From: Sminthopsis crassicaudata
Lineage: Eukaryota
Assembly: GCF_048593235.1 (NCBI RefSeq)
Contig: NC_133617.1
Location: 7,693,607 to 7,757,606, forward strand
Direction of reading: 5' to 3'
Length of the DNA: 64,000 bases
How positions within the stretch are numbered: position 1 is the first letter of the stretch; every line of letters begins with the position of its first letter. The position numbers and the translations under genes were made by a program. The notes below the pieces were generated by a model. It was not told where the DNA came from and searched no databases. It saw only the letters and a program-made list of their open reading frames with translations. Shown here one piece after another: positions 48,791 through 63,267 of this stretch.

Positions 48791-49644
48791 CCCCTCCCTC
48801 TGCCTGCCCCACTTTTTGCGGGGCGGGGAAGGCAGCCGCGGGTCCTGGGCTTCGGGTTCTAGCTTAGTTGAAGGGCTGTGGTGTCGCTTTCACCCTGGGC
48901 CTGTGAGGGAGTGGTCGGGTCAGCCCAGTGCTGGGCCCGGCGGAAGGCGCTGGGGGCGGAGCGGGGCTCGGGGAGCAGCCTCCGGCCCGCTTTTACTTCG
49001 GCTTTTCGGGAGACCCAGGGCGGCGGCGGAGGGGGGGGCTGAAGGGGAATGGCGCTGCCCCACGCTGGCCCCCCAGCCTCCCGCCTCTGCCGGTGCTCGC
49101 CCCCTCCCTTAGATTATGGTCAGAAGGAGGGTCTTTGAGAGGAGGGAAGGAAGGAGAAGCGGGCCTGAGGGCCTGACCTGGCGGAGGGACGGGAGACGGG
49201 GCCTGCGGGTGGGGGCCTTCCCCCGGGTCTCAGCCTGGCCAGCCACACCCGAGCAGGGCAGGCGGCCCAAGTGTAGAGGGGTGAGGCGCCTGGCCCGGAC
49301 TGGCTGCCTGGAGCCTTCCCTGCTTAATGGCTCCCTGCCAGGCGCCCCAAACCCCCTAAGTGAGCCTGCTTACTTGCCCGGAGCTCCTCCCCATCTCGGC
49401 CCGACCCAAAGGAACCGGCTCGGGGCTCAAAGGTTCGGAAATGGCCTCCTCCTGCCGAGACTCCCCCCCCCCCCCTTACAAAGCCCTGCCCTTCCCCCGC
49501 ACCACTGCCTCCCGGGTGGTCTCGAGCTGGTTCGCCTCCATCCCCCCACCTTGTCAGTGAGTAAGGGGAAGGCGGGAGCCGATGTGTGTCACGTGTTCGC
49601 CAAAACGCCCATCGATGCGGGCCCAAACGAGGGAACCTCGGGGT

Positions 49645-50617
49645 GCACGGTCGGCGGCCTCCCGGCTGTGGAAGGGGCGCACGGGCGGCGGCCTCCGGGG
49701 TGTGGAAGGGGCGCACGGGCGGCGGCCTCCGGGGTGTGGAAGGGGCGCGCGGGCGGCGGCCTCCCGGGTGTGGAAGGGGCGCACGGTTGACGGCCTCCGG
49801 GGTGTGGAAGGGGCGCACGGGCGGCGGCCTCCGGGGTGTGGAAGGGGCGCACGGGCGGCGGCCTCCGGGGTGTGGAAGGGGCGCGCGGGCGGCGGCCTCC
49901 CGGGTGTGGAAGGGGCGCGCGGGCGGCGGCCTCCCGGCTGTGGAAGGGGCTCAGGGGCGGCGGCCTCCGGGGTGTGGAAGGGGCGCACGGGCGGCGGCCT
50001 CCCGGGTGTGGAAGGGGCGCACGGGCGGCGGCCTCCCGGGTGTGGAAGGGGCGCAGGGGCGGCGGCCTCCGGGGTGTGGAAGGGGCGCACGGTTGACGGC
50101 CTCCGGGGTGTGGAAGGGGCTCAGGGGCGGCGGCCTCCGGGGTGTGGAAGGGGCGCACGGGCGGCGGCCTCCCGGGTGTGGAAGGGGCGCACGGGCGGCG
50201 GCCTCCCGGGTGTGGAAGGGGCGCACGGGCGGCGGCCTCCGGGGTGTGGAAGGGGCGCACGGTCGGCGAGGGGCGCACGGTCGGTGGCCTCCGGGGTGTG
50301 GAAGGGGCGCACGGGCGCCTCCCGGGGTGTGGAAGGGGCGCACGGGCGCCTCCCGGGTGTGGAAGGGGCGCACGGGCGCCTCCCGGGTGTGGAAGGGGTG
50401 CACGGTCGGCGGCCTCCGGGGTGTGGAAGGGGCGCACGGGCGCCTCCCGGGTGTGGAAGGGGCGCACGGGCGCCTCCCGGGTGTGGAAGGGGTGCACGGT
50501 CGGCGGCCTCCGGGGTGTGGAAGGGGCGCACGGGCGGCGGCCTCCCGGGTGTGGAAGGGGCGCACAGTCGGTGGCCTCCGGGGTGTGGTAGGGGCGCGCG
50601 GGCGGCGGCCGCCGGGT
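49645..50617. repeat. 34-bp G-rich minisatellite with shorter variant units
   Basis: ggggtgtggaaggggcgcacgggcggcggcctcc, roughly 30 units. Confidence 0.95.
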
Positions 50618-51442
50618 TGCTGAAGAGTCCGCAGCTCCAGGCCGACAGAACCTCGCCAAGGCGCCCGTGACGTCCCCAGGTGGCTTCCAGATGATGCGGA
50701 GCGGTCCGAAGATGGCCGCAATGGGGGAGGAACGGGTCTGTACGCCCCCAAACCCAAGCAAAGGAGACTTCCAATTCCTGCCCGCCCCCGGGGCCTCTTC
50801 CGGCTCCCCCGGTCCGGTGCAGAGCGCAGTGGTCCCGGCAGTGACGCCCTCCGCCTGTCTCCCTCCCCAGGACAGCCCCCCCTTCCTTCACCCCCGGCCT
50901 CCCCGGAGTGTGGGATCGCTGCTTCCTCCCAGTGTCCAACTGGGCTTTCCTGGCAACTGTCCAAAGAACCGCCCCGTCCACAAAGATCATCTCCAGGCCC
51001 TTGATCCCTCAGTTCTCTCCCAGGCCGCGTCCTCGCACTCGCCACTCTCCCCATTTTGACCCCGATGGACCAATTCTGCGCCTCGCCTCCTTACATCCCG
51101 ATTACGCCCAGGGACGCCCCTCTGCCCCTACCGATCCTCTGCCTCCTCCGTACCCTCTCACCCTTCCCAGTGGTCCCTCTCCTACCCTCTGCAGCCAAGG
51201 CTGCGGAGCTCCTTTTCCCCCTCATTGTCTCCTGTCACTCAGGGATAGAAAAGCCCCCCTCTCCTCCAACCCCCCCCAGACGAGCCCTTCTCCTGCCCCC
51301 TCACCAGTTGCCTCATTCCTCCTCGTGCTTTCATCTTCCTCTCTCCGCTGCCCACAAGCAGCCCATGTCTCTTGTCCCTTTCATCTGTGCTAACTTAGCC
51401 CTTGTGGCAGCTCCTTGCAGTGGGGCCTCCACTTCTGCTCAA

Positions 51443-52349: not shown

Positions 52350-53780
52350 CAAACAGCAGGCCCGAGGCAGGAGGATCAAGACCCAGAGCAGCCACAGAAT
52401 TGACTTCAGAGTGAGGAAAAACCGCTACCATTCTCATTCGTCTCCGGAGAACAGGGCTTACCATGTTGGAGTAAGGCGGCGCTTAGATATGATACGCAAG
52501 TGGGCTTCAGCAGGACGCGCCACTCTTAGGGCTCATGGCTGGCGTTTTTGGGCTAGGGCAAGTGTGCTGGGTCCCATTGGAACAGCCATTGTCCTAAGTC
52601 TTGGGGATCATGACCACTCTGCAGAGCCCTGTGACAGGAAGAGGAGTCACCAAGTGTAGGGACAGTGAGCAATGATGGATGGCCCTGGGAAATGAGGGAG
52701 CCAAATCCCTCAGCAAGCACTTGGTGCAGATCCAAGCAGTGCACGTGGCCCGAGGGTGTGGGGAGTGCCAAGGACTGTAGTCAGACCAAAACCAGGGCAT
52801 GGCCTGCTGGCTGCCCCTCAGGTCTGGGAAACGGGTCGCCAGAGCATTCCAGCTGTTCCATTGGAAAGGGTTCTCTTCAGTATGAATGGGTTCTTGGTGA
52901 GTCAAGCTGCCCTTGCTGGCAAAAGGCCACTCTAGCCTCCAGGGCCATCTTGGCCCACGCTAGAGACCCAGAAGGTACCAGGAGCTCAGCCCTTCCCGCT
53001 CTGCAGCTCTGGTGTCCTGACCATTCTGACCAGGCAGCCTACTCTTTCAGGAAGGCCCCGCCCTGCTCGTTTCAGGCCATTCTCTCTAGTCAGACAATTC
53101 CTGTGTGGTCCCCGAACCACCCCTATAACTTTGAGATCCAGCCCGGCTTTCTTTGATCCCGTCTCTCTTTCTCACCTTGGTCCTTGAGGGAGGGTATCTC
53201 CAGGGCAGTGTTTAGCAGGTGAATAATTAATTGGCTTTCTGGTTTTTTGCCCACCCATCCATCCTTCTATTCAGGCTATTTTATAATCATATAGTTTCTC
53301 TGCTGAGTGAATGGAAGTAAGGGGTGAATTTCTGTGGTAAGCCTTCCCACATTAGTTCCATTTATAAGCTTTTTCCCCAGGGTGAATCCTGTGCTGGGAA
53401 GTACATTCTGACTTATGGGAGGCCTTCCCACATTCTTGACATGAGGTTTCTTTCGGGGATGAACCCTTTGACGATAAATTTGTTCTGTCCTCCAGCCAGA
53501 GGGATGAATTCTGTGCTGAGAAATAAGTGGCGGGTTTTGGTTGAAGATCTTTCCACATTCACTACATTCATGCGGTTTCTCCTCAATATGAATCCAGTGA
53601 GGGGAAGGAAGTTCTGACCTACGGAAGAAAGCCTTCCCACAGTCATTAACTTAAATTTTTTTTTTTTCCTAATAGGATTTCTCTGATGAAAAATTAGTTT
53701 TGTTTTCTGCCCACAGTCATTGCAGGTATGTGGCCTCTCTGCAGGAGGACTCCCGTCATGGGAAATCGGGGAGGAACTGT
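52350..53780 (-). pseudogene. Decayed C2H2 zinc-finger array (KRAB-ZNF type relic)
   Basis: Minus strand ~53610-53497 reads HWIHIEEKPHECSECGKIFNQNPPLISQHRIH; nearby CQECGKA...QHRIHPGEKAYK and THQEPIHTEENPFQ, broken by stops and frameshifts. Confidence 0.75.
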
Positions 53781-53959
53781 GGGTGAAACCTTCCCCACAA
53801 CAGGGACCTGCTGGCAGGGAGCACCCCCAGGAGAGCAGAGTACCTAGTTTCATGTTCCATCTCAGGGCAGAAGGCTGGAATTCACAGCCACAAGAGGGAG
53901 ATCAGGGAACCAGAGTTTTTGCAGTGGGGGAAAAAAAGGGTACTCCCACTTCAAAGAAA

Positions 53960-55530
53960 AATGTCAAATGGCCACCAGCCCAAGAAGAGTTCTTCAAAGA
54001 GCTTTTTAAGAGACTTTAAAAATCAAATAAGGTAGAGGAATTAGGTGGGGAGAGGAAAAAGCAACACGTGAAAGCCAACCTATTGAAAAGATTCAAAACC
54101 TTAAGAAAATAACTCCTTAAAAATTAGAAATGGATCAGTAGACTTGGGATGGAGAGTGCTATCTGCACCTAGAGGGAGACTGTGGGCAATGAATGTGATC
54201 ACAACTTAGTATTTTCACCTTTTTTTGTTGTTTGCTTTTTTTTTTTTTTTCCTTTTTGATCTGATTTTTCTTGTGTAGTATGATAGATGTGGAGGTATGT
54301 GCAGAGGAATTGCACATGTTTAATATAGATTGAACTGCTGTCTGGCAGAGGGAGTGAGGAGGAGGGAGGAAAATTTGGAACCCAAGGTTTTGCAAGAGTA
54401 AATGTTAAAAACTAACTTCGCATGTATTTTGAAAATAATAAAAAAACCAGAATTGGACAAAAGAAAATATAATGGTATTATACTACCAAGAAATAAAATC
54501 AAAAGAAAGGAAAAAATAGAAGCAAATGTGACATATCTCATTAGAAAAACAACTTATTTGGAAACAAGTTCAAGGAGACACAATATAAAAATTATTGGAC
54601 TATCTTGTAATGTTCTGATGGCCTCTCAGTTGTAATCCTTGTCTGGGAGGAGGTTTCTTTTCTGTATAATCTTTCCTCTATGAGCAGGTTTCTTGGGAGG
54701 CTTCTGGAGCCTCCAGCCAGCCTCTTCTTCTTCCTGAATCCTGGCTCTGAAATCTCCTCCAGCTCTTGTCCTTCCCCAATCCAGACTGGTCTCCAGGCTC
54801 AATGTTACCTCTTTTATCCTCCCAGAGAATGGACTTGTGGGTACTCCCAGGGGCTTGTGGGAATTACTTACAACCAATGAACTTGTTCCTCTTAGAATTC
54901 CTAAGGTGTAAACTCCCTTTAAAGGCCTGAGCCAAAGGTCTGAGCCAGAGAACTGTCAAGTCAACCTGAGTTCTCACCTTGTAATTGTCCAGACAACCTG
55001 AATTCTCACCTGGTAATCCTAACACTATCTTAAAATTATGATTTTTTTAAAATAACCTAGATATTATATTACATAAAAGTATTAAGGAAAATTGCCCCAG
55101 AACACTAAAACAAGAGGGAAAATTAAAAGTAAAAAAAGCCACTGATCACCACCTGAAAGAAATCCCAAGATGAAAATTTATAGGAGAATTATAGCCAAGT
55201 TTCAAAATTTCCAGGTTATGGAGAAAATACTATAAGCAACAAGAAAGAAAACAAGTAATCAGGATATTACAAGATCTAGAAGCTTCTATATTAAAAGATC
55301 CTTGGACCACTGCATTTCAAAGAGCAAAGGAGATGGGCTTGCAACCAAGAATAATTTACCTAGCAAAGCTGAGGATAATCCTGAATGGAAAAAAAGTGTG
55401 TGTGTGGGGGGCGACATTTAATGAATTGAAAGACTTTCAGGTATTCCTGAGAAAAAGACAACTTAATGGACAATCAGACATATAAAATCAAGGAGAAACA
55501 AAAAGCAAACATTAAAGACCAATTATAAGG
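53960..55530 (+). mobile_element. L1 ORF1 fragment carrying a nested L1 3' piece (~54150-54450) and a solo LTR
   Basis: aaaattattggactatct|...|taaaattatg joins across the LTR; gaaatcccaagatgaaaa...attatagccaagtttcaaaatttccagg is ORF1-like. Confidence 0.7.
54606..55024 (-). mobile_element. ERV2 solo LTR with perfect 6-bp TSD
   Basis: Minus strand TGTTAGGATTAC...CAGAACATTACA; TSD ctatct at 54600-54605 and 55025-55030. Confidence 0.92.
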
Positions 55531-55539
55531 GGGCAGGGA

Positions 55540-55960
55540 AAGAAACCTTTCCCACAATCCTTACATCTCTGAGGTTTTGCCCCACTCAGAATTCTCTGCT
55601 GACAAATTGTTCTCTGGCCAAAGGCCTTTCCATATGTGGAATCCAGTATGAATTGTGTAATGGGAAATCAGGGAGGAGCTGTAGGTAAATCCCTTCCCAT
55701 GTTTATTACATTCAAGATGTTTTTCTTCACCAGGAATTATCTGATGTCTAGTAAGTTCAGCTGTCAGGTGGGGTGGGGGTGGGGGTGGGGGTTGCCATCT
55801 TTCTTATATTTGTGAGGTTTCTCTCTGGGTCCTGTTGGAGGAGCTCTGCCTTAAGGCAGAAGGCCTTCCCATACTCATGATCTTCATGGAGTTCCTGTCC
55901 AGGATAAACCCTTGGATGTCCAAGGAAGTTCTGCCCCCGGTGGGAGCTCTTCCCTTGGTC
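55540..55960 (-). pseudogene. Further degenerate C2H2 finger remnants
   Basis: Antisense ...tgtgggaaaggtttc..., ...catgggaagggattt... and ...HPRVYPGQELHEDHEYGKAF-like reads. Confidence 0.5.
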
Positions 55961-56521
55961 ACTGTCTTGGGTGTGTGTCTGTGAGTGTGTGTGTGATGTG
56001 AGAGTGTGTGAGTGTGTGTGTGTACCATTTAGAGTCTGCCTCCCCCACCCCCCATGGAAGCCATGTGTCCGTTAGACATTTTTGTATCCTTTTCTGGAAG
56101 AGAAACCTGAGCCATGGCACCTCCCAGCCAGTCAGCCCCTATTTATGGGGGCAGGAGCAGAGGGTTTCCTGATTCACCTCTCAGCCAGTCAGCCCGCTAA
56201 TTATAGCGGAAGGTTTCTGGATTTACTTGAGGTTTGGCAACAATGGAGACATGGGAGACCTTACATATGGAGCCAGGTGCTGGGGGGCATCCAGGCTCAG
56301 ACGGACACTGTCATTATTGAGCAAGGAGGGTATGATTGGGGGATGAATACTCTTCTAGGGAACATGCTGATCACTTCACCCATGCCAGAAGAATATCCGG
56401 CCATTATTCTTTCAGGTGAGAGACCAAAGATCTTGGTCACAGAGTGTTAGGATTAATGTTCTAAATGTTAGTTAAATTTAGGAGTTAGGATTTATGTTTT
56501 AAATCAAAAGAAAGGGGGAGA

Positions 56522-56935
56522 TGTTAGGTACTTACTAGGTGCTAAGTTACTACTTAACAATTCTCTAGCTCAGGGTTCACACATTTACTTCACACCTTTA
56601 AAATGAGTTCTGAAGAGGAGTTTACACACCTTTAAAAGGAGCAAGTTCATTGGTTGTAAGTAGTTCCCACAAGCCCCTGGAGTACCCACAAACCCATTCT
56701 CTAGGAGGATAAAAGAGGAGGGCAGTTGGGAAGGAAGCAGTCTGGATTGAGTCAAGGACATTCAGATTCAGATTCAGAGCCAGGATTCAGGAAGAAGAAA
56801 ATTCTAGGTTCTACCTTCACTCTGGCTGGAAGCTCCAGAAGTCTCCCAAGAAACCTGCTCAAAGATAAAAGGATTAACAGAAAAGAAACCTCCTCCCAAA
56901 GAAGGATTACAGTTGCTAGAGGACAGAACACTACA
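56522..56935 (+). mobile_element. ERV2 LTR (type A) preceded by a polypurine tract (56506-56521)
   Basis: AAAAGAAAGGGGGAGA|TGTTAGG...CAGAACACTACA; shares ggagcaagttcattgg and ggaggataaaaga with the other three LTRs. Confidence 0.9.
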
Positions 56936-56938
56936 ATT

Positions 56939-59200
56939 CGGTTCTTCTGTGAGCTGCTAGTTGGAGTGGGCATGGGGCCTGCGGCCAGGGTAGGGGTGTG
57001 ATGTCGTCAGACGGCCACTGTTGGGAGACCCTGCAGGCTCTGAGGAGTTCTGACAAAGGGTGCTTGTCCTACCATCGTGACTGGCTGCTAAGGGGCAAGG
57101 AGATTTTGGAAGAATGTATGTCCCTTCCAGAATTGTCTACTTACTACAGATTGCCTCACTCTTACCAGAATCAACTTCTCTCTGAGAATTCAGCACCATC
57201 TTCTGCTCCTGGCCAAGTATTATCTATTCCCAAATCTCCTGTCAGACATGCAAAGGTATCCTCACCAGTTTCCCTTAGAGCAGCAAGTGGAACTCACAGT
57301 CAGGATGAATACCATCAAGGCAAAATTTGTGGTACTTCGTCCCTCCCAGGGAATGGAAGTGGAGGGATGCATTCGAATGTATGAGGAGGTACATAGGATG
57401 AAAGGAACTAAAGGATTAAGGCAATGGCAAAAGGAGCATGAAAGGAAGGTATGGGTCTTCTCTGAAATGGCATCAGAGCAGCTGAAGCAGTTTGATAAGC
57501 GAAAGTCATTGGAACAGCACAAGGAATATCAGGACCTTCATGAGGTGATAGAGAAAAGTTTCAAAGAAGCACAAGGTCAGCAGAAGTTAAAAGAGGAACA
57601 CCGTCATAGAGCCAAGATTCTCAACTTGAAGCTACGTGAAGAGGAACAACAGTGGTTGAGGCAGATAGAACAAGAGTGGCTTAGAAAGGAAGAAGATCAG
57701 GATTGTTTGGGGCGTCTCTATGCCCTTCAAGAGGAGGTGTTGCAGCTCAACCAACAGCTGGATCCTAATTATCAGCACAAAGACCTTCTGAGAATAGACC
57801 TGTCTAGTTATGGAAGCAAAGGAAACCATTTATGTGGGCTTATCTCAGGTATCATTTGGACCACCAGTGAGAGAGGTTTTCCTATCCCAGAGGATGAAGC
57901 CATGGCAGAGCGCGCCTTGCAGGAGATGTGGCAGGTGCTTACCAGCTTGCAACAGGAGATTTCCAAAGCTATTGAAGAGAGGAGACGAGACAAAGAAGAG
58001 GCCAAGCAGAAGCATAGGGAATTACAGCAGCAGCCAAAAGCAGAGAAGGAGACCCCAGTTCCTACCCATTCCCCAGGAGGAAAACAGAGAGAAGGCGTCC
58101 AGGTGAAGCAGTAGACAGTACAATGCAGTGGTACCAACAGCTGCAGGATGCTGCCAGTCAATGTGTTTTGGCCTTTGATGGGTTAACCAACAGCAAAGAT
58201 CATCAGACTAAAAAGATTAAGACGGACCTGCAGAAAGCTGCCACCATTCCTGTCAATCTCCCAGCTAAAGGAAATATTTGATAAGATCAACAGTCTGCTT
58301 TTGGGAAAGGCTGTTCACTGTGGAGGTCGGGCTGTGTCAGTGATGAACCATCAACAAGGACTGGACTTTGTCCATTACAGAGAAATTTGTGAAACAAACA
58401 GAAGTGGCTTCTCACCATGAAGCAGCATTCCCCATTGCTGTTGTAGCATCAGGAATCTGGGAACTCCATCTCCATAAAAAGTGCCCTTACTCTGTGCTTT
58501 TCTACCCAGCCTTTAAGGAGGGAATGGCCTTGGAAGAATATCAGAAGCTCCTTGGCTACCTAGTAAAGGATTCCAAAGTCGAACAGGATAATTTCCTGAA
58601 ACGCATGTCTGGGATGATTTATGCTGCTATCATTCAACTCTGTTGGCCTTATGGAAATAGGCAAGGGGCTCACCCCTTGAATCATGGCTGGCGATGCTTG
58701 GCACTGATCTTGAATATGGAGCCTCTCTCAGATGTGACTGCCACTCTTCTGTTTGACTTCTTAGAGGTATGTGGGAATGCACTCATGAGACAGGACCAAG
58801 GTCACTTCTGGAAGATGATGCTACTCATAAAAGAAGAATATTTCCCCAGAATTGAAGCCATCACCAGCTCAGGACAAATGGGGTCTTTCATACATCTCAA
58901 ACAATTCCTGGAGAAATGTCTACAATGCAGGGAGATTCCCATCCCAAAGGGCTCTTTGCCCTCTTCTTTCTGACATTCCTGATGGTGACTTGAATGCTGG
59001 TTCCTTTCTTGGAAGAAAGAAATAAAGCAACAGAAGACAGCAAAGTTTTGGTGGAAGTTGTCTCAGGAAGGTTATTTTCACAGTTTTAATGTCTTCTCAA
59101 ACTTGATCATGAATTACATCAAGGATCTTCACTTTGTTGACATAGTAACCAAGAAGAGAATAAGCTTTGATAACCATGGAATAGTAAAAGGAATTTAAGT
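56939..59200 (+). pseudogene. GLE1: Intronless GLE1 retrocopy (5'UTR, CDS 57001 to ~58980, partial 3'UTR), disabled
   Basis: [20 protein letters not shown]..., [60 protein letters not shown] match recalled GLE1; no introns; frameshifts near 57320, 58108, 58250, 58378; several small deletions. Confidence 0.95.
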
Positions 59201-59394
59201 TTTATTCTTAATGAAAGATACAGGAAAAAATGATGGCAACTGAGATTACACCCAAAGAGCCTTTAGAAGGTCAGGACTCTGATTTGATCAACCAGCAGAA
59301 AAGCAATCACATGGCAGAAAGGGATTACCTTTTAAGTCAGCCAAAAGGCAATCAGATTGCAAAATTGGATTACACTTGGGGAGAATACAGGCCT

Positions 59395-59926
59395 TTTAAA
59401 CCAACAGGGCTGTGTCCAGTGCAAACAGCTCCAATGTAATTGCCAGATGATGAGAAGAGATTGAGAAAGTGGTAAATAGAAGGTAATTAGATAGGTTAAC
59501 TGCCTGGGAGAGAGGGTTTGCTTGTATTTTAATAGACAGAAGGAAATAGATGGAGAAGGAAACAGATGGGTAACAACAAGCACCTGGAGAGAGACAGAAA
59601 AAGAGAAAAACCTCAAAACAAAGGAGAAGATCTAAGAAACATCTGAGATTGAAAGAGCATGGCTAATAAAAAGACTGTTAAAGAACTTTAAAACCAGCAG
59701 GAATCATTGGACTTCCTCACACAAGATGAGACTAATGGACAATGGACTTATGGACATTTATAAATTCTCAATTTATGATTATTTGATCATGGTATTTGTT
59801 ACATACTTCTAGTATGTATTATGTTACTATGTGCTTATGTAATTATGTGTAATACCTCCCATATTGATGGATTTATGTTTCAAGGTCATGACTACCCTAT
59901 GTTCTAAATCAAAAGAAAGGGGGAGA
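59395..59926 (+). mobile_element. ERV2 internal 3' end: integrase C-terminal remnant, env-less 3' region, PPT (59911-59926)
   Basis: 59490-59528 reads DRLTAWERGFACI, similar to the betaretroviral integrase motif WGRGFAC; ends in AAAAGAAAGGGGGAGA. Confidence 0.75.
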
Positions 59927-60324
59927 TGTTAGGATTACAAGGTGAGAACTCAGGTTGACTTGACAGTTCTCTGGCTCAGACCTTTGGTTCGGCCTTTAAA
60001 GGGAGTTTACACCTTAGGAATTCTAAGAGGAGCAAGTTCATTGGTGGAAGTATTTCCCCATGCCCCATTGAGTTCTCACATGCTTATTCTCTGGGAGGAT
60101 AAAAGAAGGGCAGCATTGAGTCTGAGAGAATCCACTCTGGGACACAGTTGTAACACCAGGCAGGCTGAAAGGAGACCAGTCTGGTTTGGGGAAGGACAAG
60201 AACTAGAGGATATTAAGAGCTCCCAAGAAACCTGGGCACAGAGGAAAAGATCTTACAGATCTCCTCCCAGAGAAGGATTATAATTAAACAGATGACTGGA
60301 CCCTCACAATTCAAGAACTTTACA
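59927..60324 (+). mobile_element. ERV2 3' LTR (type B)
   Basis: TGTTAGGATTACAAGGTGAGAAC...CAAGAACTTTACA; its 5' part is near-identical to the reverse complement of the 54606-55024 LTR. Confidence 0.9.
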
Positions 60325-60519
60325 ACAGAACTGCTTGGGCTCCGTCCAAACTCAGTGTTCGCATGCAGTTGTACAAGCTCTGAAATATAACCTTGCTTAC
60401 TACATCTATTATAATATGGGTAGGACAGCTTTTTCTCTAATCCCAGAATGTTAAAGGTAAAAAAGTACTTAGAACTAAGTCTCTGGGGCATTTAAGTGAT
60501 ACTAGTATTGGAAAGTATG

Positions 60520-60957: not shown

Positions 60958-61411
60958 AGTTAGGTTCTTACTAAGTGCTAAATCGGTACTTAACAATTCT
61001 CTAGTTCCCCCCTTTAGGGGAGTTTTACTCCTGGGAACTCCTGAGGAGGAGCTTATGTGTTTAGGAGCAAGTTCATTGGTTGAAGTATTTCTTCCCCAAA
61101 GCCCTTGTGTTATCCCACGCCCATTCTCTGGGAGGATAAAAGAGGGCGGGCACTCGAGAGATTGAGAGTTTTGTCTGGGCTAGACCTGGGGTGGCTCTCT
61201 GGAGGAAAAAAAGAGTCTCTACACGAGGTCAGAGTTGGCGGCAGTTGAGACAGAAGATCTCCCAGAGAGCAATTGGCAGTCTCTGGAGACCACAGAACAT
61301 TACAAATTGGCGTCCACACGTGGGGCAAGCACTTTTGCTTATCCTGACAAGGACTTATTCTGAGCCCTTCAGAGGAGCTAGACCATCGCAATTTGGCACC
61401 CGAACAGGGAC
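60958..61411 (+). mobile_element. ERV2 5' LTR (60958-61304) with two primer-binding sites (61308-61326 Lys1,2-like; 61394-61411 Lys3-like)
   Basis: LTR ends CAGAACATTACA; then aat-TGGCGTCCACACGTGGGGC and, further on, ca-att-TGGCACCCGAACAGGGAC. Confidence 0.85.
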
Positions 61412-61591
61412 AGACACGATCCTGATTCCAGTGGAAAAACCTCTGATTCAGATTCCAGTGGAAAAGATTTACTGACGCAGAAATAACTGTGAGTAACAAG
61501 GAAACTTTGTTAAAGATTAAGTGAGCGTTCTAATAGACAAATAAAGAACTTAACTTGTTAAGGGCTAAACCAGGAATCTCTTATAGCTGAA

Positions 61592-62170
61592 ATGGGGCAG
61601 GTGTTAGCTAAAGACAATCCCTGGACCTCAGCCGACTCAGCCCCAGCCCCAGCGGCAGCCTCAGCTCCAGCCCCATTCAGGAATAGTACTATAGAGAGTA
61701 TAATTAGGATAATTGAGGAGCAGAGTTTACTTGTAACCTGGGTACAGATTGCTAAACTCTTGGCTGCATTAAGACGCACCTCCCCTTGGGTCTTAGAGGA
61801 AGAAAAGATAGATGTAGATAACTGGAAGCCAGTGGGATTTGAAATGAAAGAATTTCATGTAAAAAATGGGCCTCGTTCAATTTCTGCAGAAGTATTTTAT
61901 ATCTACAACATAGTTCAATTAGCCTTAAACTATCGAGCAAGTTGTAGGAGAAGGAAAAGTTTTTAAAATGAACAGAGGAGGAAGTTCGAGGAAAAAAGGA
62001 AACATCAAGATCTTGCCCAAGAGCAAGAGGATTTAAATGAGGATTAGGGTGTGATGACTCTGATTCTCTTGAAGCTTCAACCCTGCCTAGAGAGCAGATT
62101 ATTGATGTGCCCACATCAACTCCACGTTCAGGGGTGGAGGAAGGAGGAGGAGGGGAAGAGGCAGAAACAC
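61592..62170 (+). pseudogene. gag: Truncated betaretrovirus-like gag (matrix region)
   Basis: MGQVLAK myristoylation-type start; SPWVLEEEKIDVDNWKPVG resembles Gag p10; stop at 61966 and homology lost by ~62170. Confidence 0.8.
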
Positions 62171-63267
62171 AATTCAAGAACTGCTGAGTCAGACAGTGCT
62201 AATCTGTGTTGTGATCCAGGCCCTCCCACTGGCTTGCCTGAGCCTCTGCTGGGCTGCGTGCCCCCTTCACCCCAGTGAGACCGCCGTTTCCTGAAGTCCT
62301 TCCAACCTCTCTTGAGCTGGAAAATTGTGCCATTCCAAGTTGTGTCCTTCAGAGTCTGTTCAGAAGTTTGCTTTCCTGTCTTTCTGAAGGAAACTGGGAG
62401 CACTCAGGCAACTTCCTGGCTTCTCTGCCATCTGGGCTCTGCCCCTCAAAAAAAGGGCGCCCACACTTCTTGGGGCCGCCAGCCTCCCTGGTCCTGGGGC
62501 TGTTGGGAATGATGGACATGTCCTGGAGGACGTGAGGGGGCTGAGACCTTCCTGCCAAGGTGGTCTGGGTTGCCAGGGAGCCCGGGACTCAGGCCCCAGC
62601 CCTTCTGAGCCTCTTGAGAGAAGCTCCATGGCCAAAGATGCAAGCCCCGCTCCCACGATGTCCTTTGCCCTCCTCTGTCCTCTCCCAATCCCTACAAATG
62701 TGTCGGTTTGCCTTTTATAACGGGGACGCTGAGTGGACCTGCCTCCGAGGCTGGGTGGGGGTGGGGAGGTGTCCCTGTAACACTGATGGGGCCCCAGCCC
62801 TGCAGTCTGAAGAACTGAGTTCGAAACTGGCCTCTGACACTTGTTAGCCCTGCCCTGCCATGCCCTGCGGTGCCCTGCCCTTCCCCCTCAGTTTCTTTAC
62901 CACCAGAGAAGGAAATAGCAGAAGCTCTTGGTTTTACTCAGAAAACCCCAAATTAGGGCGCAGAGCGGCAGAAAGGGCTGATTGGCTTTCGCACAGGGAT
63001 GTTGCCCCCCCAGCATCTCCCTTAGACTTCTCATGCCCCTCTGGGGGTCCCTGCTGCCGGGGGTCTCCGAGTCCTTGGGGCAGTCTCAGGGCGGGCTCCC
63101 CTCGGCAGGGGCAGGAGGCTGGGACGGCCCGCCCTGGCCACTAATGGGGAAGGCAGCTGACCCTTCCCCTTCTTGTACAAATGCTCTCCAAGGAGGGCGG
63201 GGCTCCCTCTGGAGGGCGTCCAGTGTGGGAGACTTTTCTGGGCCAGCCTCTGCACAGGGCGCCCACA

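Follow-up and report, generated by a model that had tools for sequence, protein, structure and literature searches.

An endogenous retrovirus carrying an intronless GLE1 message in Sminthopsis crassicaudata: probable capture by template switching and later spread without a primer-binding site

Mammalian retrocopies are attributed almost wholly to the L1 retrotransposon. Another route has been described in long terminal repeat (LTR)-mediated retroposition, where an intronless host sequence replaces an internal part of a retrotransposon between its LTRs and bears no L1 hallmarks, with three such retrocopies found in human and eight in mouse in one survey (Tan et al., 2016; PMC5131818). In the same paper, secondary retroposition with shared switch points and derived substitutions is reported for CG17604_r in Drosophila and Bs1 in maize (PMC5131818). 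Here we describe an intronless copy of the mRNA-export gene GLE1 within a betaretrovirus-like (ERV2) endogenous retrovirus (ERV) of the marsupial Sminthopsis crassicaudata, at 56445-60324 of a 64,000-nucleotide (nt) stretch of contig NC_133617.1 (the window, within which positions are counted). This element has probably arisen through one capture by reverse transcriptase (RT) template switching, followed by secondary spread with priming supplied by a helper. The class of event, including secondary spread, is known; what sets this case apart is the marsupial host, the complete coding sequence (CDS), the loss of the primer-binding site (PBS) and leader, the spread despite this loss, and the LTR mosaics that record the route.

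Like the cases of Tan et al. (2016), the GLE1 element is intronless, shows LTR-element sequence that is discontinuous on both sides, has no poly(A) and has spread secondarily with shared junctions (PMC5131818). As in LTR-mediated retrocopies, an integrase-type target-site duplication (TSD) surrounds the whole element, with 6/6 identity in a second copy (copy 2) and 5/6 in the window copy. It differs from the published cases in that the CDS is whole, and in that the PBS and leader were lost at the 5' joint and the element spread nonetheless, a contrast drawn with the cases as that paper describes them, PBS loss being possible in some (PMC5131818). A similar human example is the capture of a FAM8A1 pseudogene by HERV-K (Jamain et al., 2001, as described in PMC5131818), in which a betaretrovirus-like ERV likewise came to carry, in the germ line of a mammal, the spliced mRNA of a host gene; the lineage and the gene are others. 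In oncogene transduction, a host CDS, already spliced, is placed under an LTR by non-homologous RT recombination, and the resulting genome depends on a helper (PMC4997597). Compared with acutely transforming retroviruses, the GLE1 element has neither PBS nor packaging signal and retains the viral spacer at its junction. In classic transduction, by poly(A) read-through from a provirus next to the gene, the PBS and the packaging signal are both kept. Mikkelsen and colleagues reportedly showed in 1998, with cell-culture vectors, that PBS-defective RNA can be copied by priming from a co-packaged RNA and transfer through R-U5 homology; the LTR mosaic of copy 2 is as such a rescue route would predict, and would here be a fossil of it from the germ line, the cargo being a host gene.

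A likely carrier and helper family is MEBrv 3, described as an env-less ERV amplified in Dasyuridae (PMC11334065), which resembles the family found here in being betaretrovirus-like, of very high copy number and spread by intracellular retrotransposition. MEBrv 3 also has, towards its 3' end, a degraded motif of the Env immunosuppressive domain (PMC11334065), to which a decayed motif in the GLE1 carrier may correspond; the two were compared by description, the GLE1 carrier being known from gag-plus-tail derivatives. The main text of that paper contains no wording on host genes, capture, retrocopies or primer binding (PMC11334065). Literature searches, with most subscription journals outside their coverage, showed, among the papers listed, no report of this element or of a marsupial LTR-mediated retrocopy, and GLE1 occurred 0 times in the papers listed by searches directed at it. 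The element suggests that mobility can persist in a captured gene even once the PBS and leader, regarded as necessary in cis, have gone, which would provide natural germ-line evidence for a rescue known from work with vectors. In a lineage where an env-less ERV is so abundant, more such captures are predicted, of a kind that retrocopy screens based on poly(A) and TSDs would miss.

The GLE1 block and its two relatives

The original prediction, made from the window sequence, had pointed to a genome search for further GLE1 copies with the same junctions, and two full-length intronless copies were found, copy 2 (C2:670.76 Mb) and copy 3 (C2:365.30 Mb). The 5' joint, CTACA-ATT-(T/C)GGTTC, is identical across all three copies, and a search with this junction pattern gave six matches, of which the three GLE1 loci had 0 mismatches and the other three had 3 mismatches, about the level of the control (2). 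The 3' joint, GGAAAAAA followed directly by TGATGGC, is identical in the window copy and copy 2, which were the only two loci returned by its pattern search (control 0). Copy 3 is interrupted 21 nt before this point by short interspersed element (SINE) and L1 sequence, and no viral tail was found beyond it within the ~17 kb examined. Divergence between the copies is 5.2-5.9%, and between copies and parent gene 4.0-4.8%. At 31 sites all three copies agree against the parent, and 12 of these are nonsynonymous; seven of the twelve states (P2S, R6H, R157W, R169Q, K177E, G484A, Y633D) are missing from 9/9 marsupial orthologues, three are changes in the parent, and two are less clear. Human GLE1 also carries Y633 and G484. 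The seven derived and damaging changes common to all three copies therefore indicate one captured molecule that was then re-retrotransposed. The window copy and copy 2 alone share 10 substitutions, including the premature stop W692*, and a 3-base pair (bp) deletion, while other pairings share four each, and the window copy is therefore a re-mobilised descendant rather than the direct product of capture that had been proposed for it. Private divergence amounts to ~2-3% per copy; the stem common to all three is much shorter than these private branches. A change at residue 87 that is also shared, a single site, suggests that the capture came later than the divergence from the Antechinus and Sarcophilus lineages. 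The non-CpG changes common to the window copy and copy 2 are all G>A (6/6, P = 0.03) in mixed contexts, a hint that their ancestor may have undergone APOBEC-type editing.

The block is laid out as follows, all features lying on the + strand (PPT, polypurine tract; UTR, untranslated region):

56439-56444, +, left TSD ACAGAG, 5/6 identical with the right TSD
56445-56505, +, aberrant left end: 11 nt of the LTR-B start, then stuttered pieces of U3 start and pre-PPT sequence
56506-56521, +, extra PPT before LTR-A
56522-56935, +, LTR-A (5' LTR), ending CTACA, of the subtype seen in the 5' LTR of copy 3
56936-56941, +, viral spacer ATT (56936-56938) and (T>C)GG, the 5' switch point
56939-57000, +, GLE1 5'UTR, 62 nt, exon match to the parent
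57001-58982, +, GLE1 CDS without introns, broken, first stop after 127 codons
58983-59230, +, part of the GLE1 3'UTR, ending within a genomic A8 tract at the 3' switch point, no poly(A)
59231-59910, +, ERV tail of high copy number: gag frame (C-terminal end), followed by a decayed motif at 59490-59528
59911-59926, +, 3' PPT
59927-60324, +, LTR-B (3' LTR), abundant B subtype, unmatched with LTR-A
60325-60330, +, right TSD ACAGAA

The coordinates of the original prediction all proved correct on rechecking, as did its reading that the block opens with the first 11 nt of LTR-B between ACAGAG and ACAGAA; these 11 nt, TGTTAGGATTA, occupy 56445-56455, and the stutter behind them spans ~50 nt. No match to this aberrant left end was seen in the other 39 loci scored. 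A TSD of 5/6 or better has a chance probability of P = 0.005 with the boundaries fixed. The flanks of the insertion each occur once in the genome, and therefore no paralogous empty site exists. Sequencing runs gave 19 holders of the left flank in 21 rows, under four species codes, with a share of 0.04 for the rows of other species; these rows are not taken as evidence. The three caveats raised earlier, that LTR-A and LTR-B are not a matched pair, that LTR-A has a PPT of its own and that the TSD is 5/6, are all borne out, and the first two are explained by the window copy being a secondary product, for whose unmatched LTRs and extra PPT recombination at a later time with another member of the family is the best explanation. 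Between the tails of the window copy and copy 2 there are 19 differences at sites polymorphic among 22 family tails, and two minority states are held in common; this would fit separate helper crossovers, without being decisive.

The parent gene has introns and lies at C2:498881475-498922722 (genome G000), where it encodes an intact 694-amino-acid protein whose identity to two orthologues from dasyurids is 98.8% and 98.4%. All 16 parent exons match the window copy contiguously and in order, and all 15 introns are GT-AG and absent from it, so that the intronless CDS with a partial 3'UTR and no poly(A) was correctly recognised; no run of eight or more A occurs within 56401-60400. Alignment to the parent mRNA placed the 3' joint at the A8 tract, which templates the six A found there. 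The captured mRNA in the window copy has suffered 13 small deletions (1-30 bp) across 57150-59210. Private deletions in GLE1 number 12 in the window copy, one in copy 2 and none in copy 3 (P ~2e-5), and the viral tail of the window copy shows no comparable excess of small deletions.

Joints, capture and spread

At the 5' joint, the parent reads CACAAG-TGGTTC, the family CTACA-ATT-TGGCGC and the chimera CTACA-ATT-TGGTTC, and the switch therefore lies at the TGG that opens the PBS. This TGG is common to the PBS start and the GLE1 5'UTR, in agreement with the earlier reading that the 5'UTR begins at the PBS position behind an LTR-A that ends CTACA and keeps a 3-nt spacer, att. The start of the PBS is the place where plus strong-stop DNA anneals in second-strand transfer. 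At the 3' joint, the viral sequence reads GGGGCA-TGATGG, the break falling before TGATGG, and A-rich similarity lies nearby out of register. GLE1 has replaced ~1.9 kb of PBS, leader and gag, as judged against family member L040 and window 61304-62172.

Both kinds of joint are made by the family without any host gene, which supports a template-switch mechanism for the founding event. In L130, an internal deletion, LTR-TAT-TGG is joined directly to the viral tail, and in L041 a joint from the second PBS (PBS2) to the tail lies 6-7 nt away from the GLE1 3' junction. Non-standard sequence ahead of the tail was seen at four loci, namely two GLE1 copies, one inversion and one locus that abuts sequence probably of L1 type. 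An LTR, spacer and TGG with a non-standard next base were seen at 24 loci: 14 have a mutated first PBS (PBS1), one is copy 2, one is the internal deletion L130, three are solo LTRs whose TSD reads WWTTGG by coincidence, and five are of none of these kinds. These five (L114, L117, L120, L126 and L131), where LTR-spacer-TGG is followed by non-PBS sequence and no matching TSD was found, are candidate aberrant second-strand joints. The narrow exact-match patterns used showed no second captured host gene at the same joints.

The founding event would have taken place in a germ-line particle of the ERV2 element in which spliced GLE1 mRNA had been co-packaged. Close to the end of gag, the minus strand would have switched from the viral RNA to an A-rich spot in the GLE1 3'UTR, copied the whole CDS, and been joined to plus strong-stop DNA at the TGG of the PBS, giving LTR-att-GLE1-tail-PPT-LTR, a structure that is seen directly and whose mechanism would be as described. 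The original prediction of LTR-mediated capture by RT template switching, rather than an L1 retrocopy, is upheld by the joint at the PBS position and by the lack of poly(A) and an L1-type TSD; its further proposal that the minus strand ran to the 5' end of the mRNA is no more than a possibility, the joint lying 62 nt before the ATG. The founder then gathered mutations, and at least three loci derive from it, which share the 5' junction and derived mutations, and two of which keep both ends and a TSD.

How an element without a PBS was copied is best recorded by copy 2. This copy is bounded by a perfect TSD, CATAAG, and its LTR bodies form a pair (different at 17/250 sites) with unlike termini, the 5' LTR being A-type, as beside GLE1 in all three copies, and the 3' LTR B-type. 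Its right end runs from the 3' LTR through PBS1 and leader to a CA three bases before the family PBS2 position; since PBS1 and leader are absent from the element, this end was derived from an RNA with PBSs. The left end would then have been completed by a crossover in a short box common to A and B LTRs. The 5' LTR of copy 2 also holds a 32-bp U3 unit in about ten tandem copies (L002:4430-4757), and its 3' LTR holds two of these units, with an L1 fragment interrupting. In the favoured model, the chimeric RNA, having no PBS, would have been copied in particles that held B-type helper RNA. The helper would have given the tRNA-primed strong-stop DNA, and hence the 3' LTR, and the 5' LTR would have been finished by annealing through R-U5 homology, which would keep the founder's A-type U5 beside GLE1. 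Copy 2 would be the clean product of this route. In the window copy, an abortive plus-strand start would have laid down 11 nt of B-type U3, slipped back at an ATGTT common to both onto an A-type template, in its pre-PPT region, and run on through the PPT and the entire LTR-A; premature plus-strand transfers have been documented for HIV-1 (PMC12657518).

Several points weigh against this account. Exact shared sequence amounts to 3 nt at the 5' joint (TGG, with ACAA just before) and to 1 nt at the 3' joint. How an RNA with neither leader nor packaging signal came to be packaged, at least twice, is not accounted for by the helper model and is its weak point. The 3' end of copy 3 has been lost to the SINE and L1 insertion, so that its own TSD and the founder's 3' LTR are beyond checking. 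When LTR-A was compared with A-type LTRs in three segments, the LTR of copy 3 was tied first, second, and outside the top eight; LTR-A is therefore not clearly closer to it than to other A-type LTRs.

The alternative that survives best is a cis master, in which the copies descend from a lost tandem element, LTR-PBS-leader-internal-PPT-LTR-A-GLE1-tail-PPT-LTR, with priming and packaging on the same RNA, each survivor having lost what lay upstream of the internal LTR-A, either in a premature second-strand transfer or in recombination between LTRs. This would account at once for the PPT before LTR-A, for repeated packaging, and for the PBS and leader on the right end of copy 2; the upstream internal region is however retained in 0/3 copies. 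Such a master could have originated by the classic route, with read-through from a provirus that sat in exon 1 of GLE1, although integration there would leave pure host sequence (parent AAG-TGG), whereas ATT-TGG, the viral norm in 5/24 A-type loci, was found. The cis master as a whole is thus an unlikely explanation, albeit one to be taken seriously, and for the copying step alone a helper is rather likely to have been used in preference to a master of this kind.

A tailless GLE1 retrocopy made by L1, primed at the internal A8 and inserted into an existing ERV that lost its PBS-to-gag region and was later mobilised, would agree with a 3' joint that falls within an A-rich tract of the parent 3'UTR. 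On the other hand, there is neither poly(A) nor a duplication around GLE1 (no TSD of 7-20 bp was found around the GLE1 segment of the window copy), the two sides are different viral parts, GGGGCA-TGATGG at the 3' joint is unlike an L1 target, and the 5' joint falls exactly at the TGG of the PBS, with viral parts replaced and not interrupted. A simple L1 insertion is excluded because there is no poly(A), no TSD and ~1.9 kb of viral sequence replaced, and we consider the more elaborate L1 history very improbable. Still less credible is that GLE1 mRNA was captured three times independently, with the same hot spots used each time; reuse of the tail start and of the PBS TGG as joints in L041 and L130, and private branches far longer than the shared stem, would speak for this, but it is refuted by the seven amino-acid changes missing from every orthologue and by the 10 further substitutions, with the premature stop and the 3-bp deletion, shared by the window copy and copy 2, unless all of these were inherited from a lost damaged GLE1 allele. 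Misassembly or DNA-level segmental duplication is almost inconceivable, for the loci, as known from the assembly, differ by 5.2-5.9%, have differing LTR make-up and different single-copy flanks, and carry TSDs of their own.

The carrier family

The carrier family has traits of an ERV2 or betaretrovirus-like element, namely beta-type Gag domains, a 6-bp TSD and tRNA-Lys PBSs. In a survey of 24 B-type LTR loci, the TSD was 6/6 in nine, 5/6 in one and 4/6 in two, the other 12 being provirus ends or loci where the start was not found, and none reached 7 bp; the family TSD is therefore 6 bp and the 5/6 of the window copy is ordinary decay. The neighbouring LTR at 54606-55024, a solo LTR with the perfect TSD CTATCT, had already been cited in favour of this size. 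The B subtype of the LTR is abundant, with 1428 candidates, and among A-type LTR loci 5/24 read CTACA-ATT-TGG-PBS, as had been expected of the family. Another comparator offered earlier, ca-att-tgg at 61389 as an LTR end, was mistaken, this being PBS2 (at 61394) in the leader of a provirus whose LTR ends at 61304 (CA-AAT-TGG, PBS1).

Two tandem PBSs, 65-135 nt apart, are a feature of the family (window 61304-61411; L041, L049, L064, L118). PBS1 is presumably of the tRNA-Lys1,2 type. PBS2, at 61394, agrees in 17/18 nt with the PBS for tRNA-Lys3 given in PMC12657518. Extended LTR ends, in which LTR, PBS1 and leader are enclosed by a TSD of their own, were seen in L090, L125 and L135-137 (5/24 rows, three events) and also in copy 2, and appear to arise by priming at PBS2. 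A literature search for tandem PBSs gave as its only relevant title a paper on Drosophila gypsy. One family member, at L041:1092-2784 (- strand), is a ~1.7-kb minimal element, LTR-PBS1-leader-PBS2-tail-PPT-LTR, with the TSD ACATAG, unmatched LTRs and a stuttered start of the 3' LTR.

The tail that follows GLE1 has 3944 candidates and in L040 it comes after a beta-type gag, so that it is certainly viral. Upstream of the tail L040 has matches to Gag_p10, Gag_p24, Gag_p24_C and zf-CCHC_5, and Gag_p10 is matched also at window 61592. The family members compared are gag-plus-tail deletion derivatives, and no RT sequence was found in the element or in these members. The integrase C-terminal remnant that had been reported here is present as a motif, DRLTAWERGFACI at 59490-59528, and its identity as integrase found no confirmation: it gave 0 Pfam matches in three frames (E up to 1), and the tail had no nucleotide match to 20 of 150 IN_DBD_C loci, which belong to another family, with a non-significant peptide match elsewhere in the tail. 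The sole three matches in the PDB are weak (E 0.96-1.3), to the immunosuppressive domain of syncytin or ERV Env. We take DRLTAWERGFACI to resemble both an integrase C-terminus and the Env immunosuppressive domain, and the decayed motif may be a remnant of either. In a separate young ERV family (L138-L157), many pol frames are open over ~860-960 codons; nothing in it matches the tail of the GLE1 element at the nucleotide level.

Coding state and surroundings

The reading frame is interrupted after 127 codons in the window copy and after 130 codons in copy 2, and both are pseudogenes as judged from their sequences. Copy 3 (L003:1731-3815, - strand; C2:365.297-365.299 Mb) has an unbroken 694-amino-acid open reading frame (ORF) directly behind the LTR, with 52 amino-acid differences from the parent, no ATG between the TATA-like box of the LTR and the ORF, and AATAAA 39 nt past the stop. 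In LTR-A of the window copy, a TATA-like box lies ~290 nt upstream of the GLE1 ATG. In simulation, 48-60 substitutions without a stop had P = 0.02-0.04, a post hoc figure for one of three copies. The private changes of copy 3, 34 nonsynonymous and 15 synonymous, do not differ in ratio from those of the broken copies (P = 0.47), its C-terminal domain is not spared from changes, and 21 changes fall at sites invariant in six outgroups. Changes at invariant sites are fewer than the average would give (P = 0.02), yet set against the broken copies the shortfall is not significant (P = 0.28). There is thus no sign of purifying selection in the N:S ratio or the invariant-site tests, and copy 3 is apparently an intact retrocopy behind an LTR promoter, evolving neutrally. 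The exact protein was not found in a 15-billion collection. Copy 3 is nevertheless a candidate retrogene of an essential export factor, and a more ambitious reading, which is decidedly doubtful, would combine a helper-only mobile gene family without PBS or leader, its LTR mosaics recording successive borrowings, with an expressed, LTR-driven copy 3 that, through its changes at residues invariant elsewhere, alters mRNA export in the germ line, possibly that of ERV RNA.

The surroundings of the window copy are rich in related insertions. A second provirus, 3'-truncated, lies 630 bp downstream at 60959-62175 (LTR, PBS1, leader, PBS2 and gag start with the Gag_p10 match), so that together with the solo LTR at 54606-55024 and the main block there are three family insertions within 8 kb. 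They sit within the decayed remains of a C2H2 zinc-finger region, which lies on the minus strand (53300-56444 and 60331-60400). On translation of the flanks, minus-strand frames are open on both sides, yet give no recognisable protein; a splice-acceptor-like site near 60375 opens a minus-strand frame that is open again across the insertion. Further upstream, at 49504-50788, there is a GC-rich tandem array with a 34-bp unit and more than 25 units.

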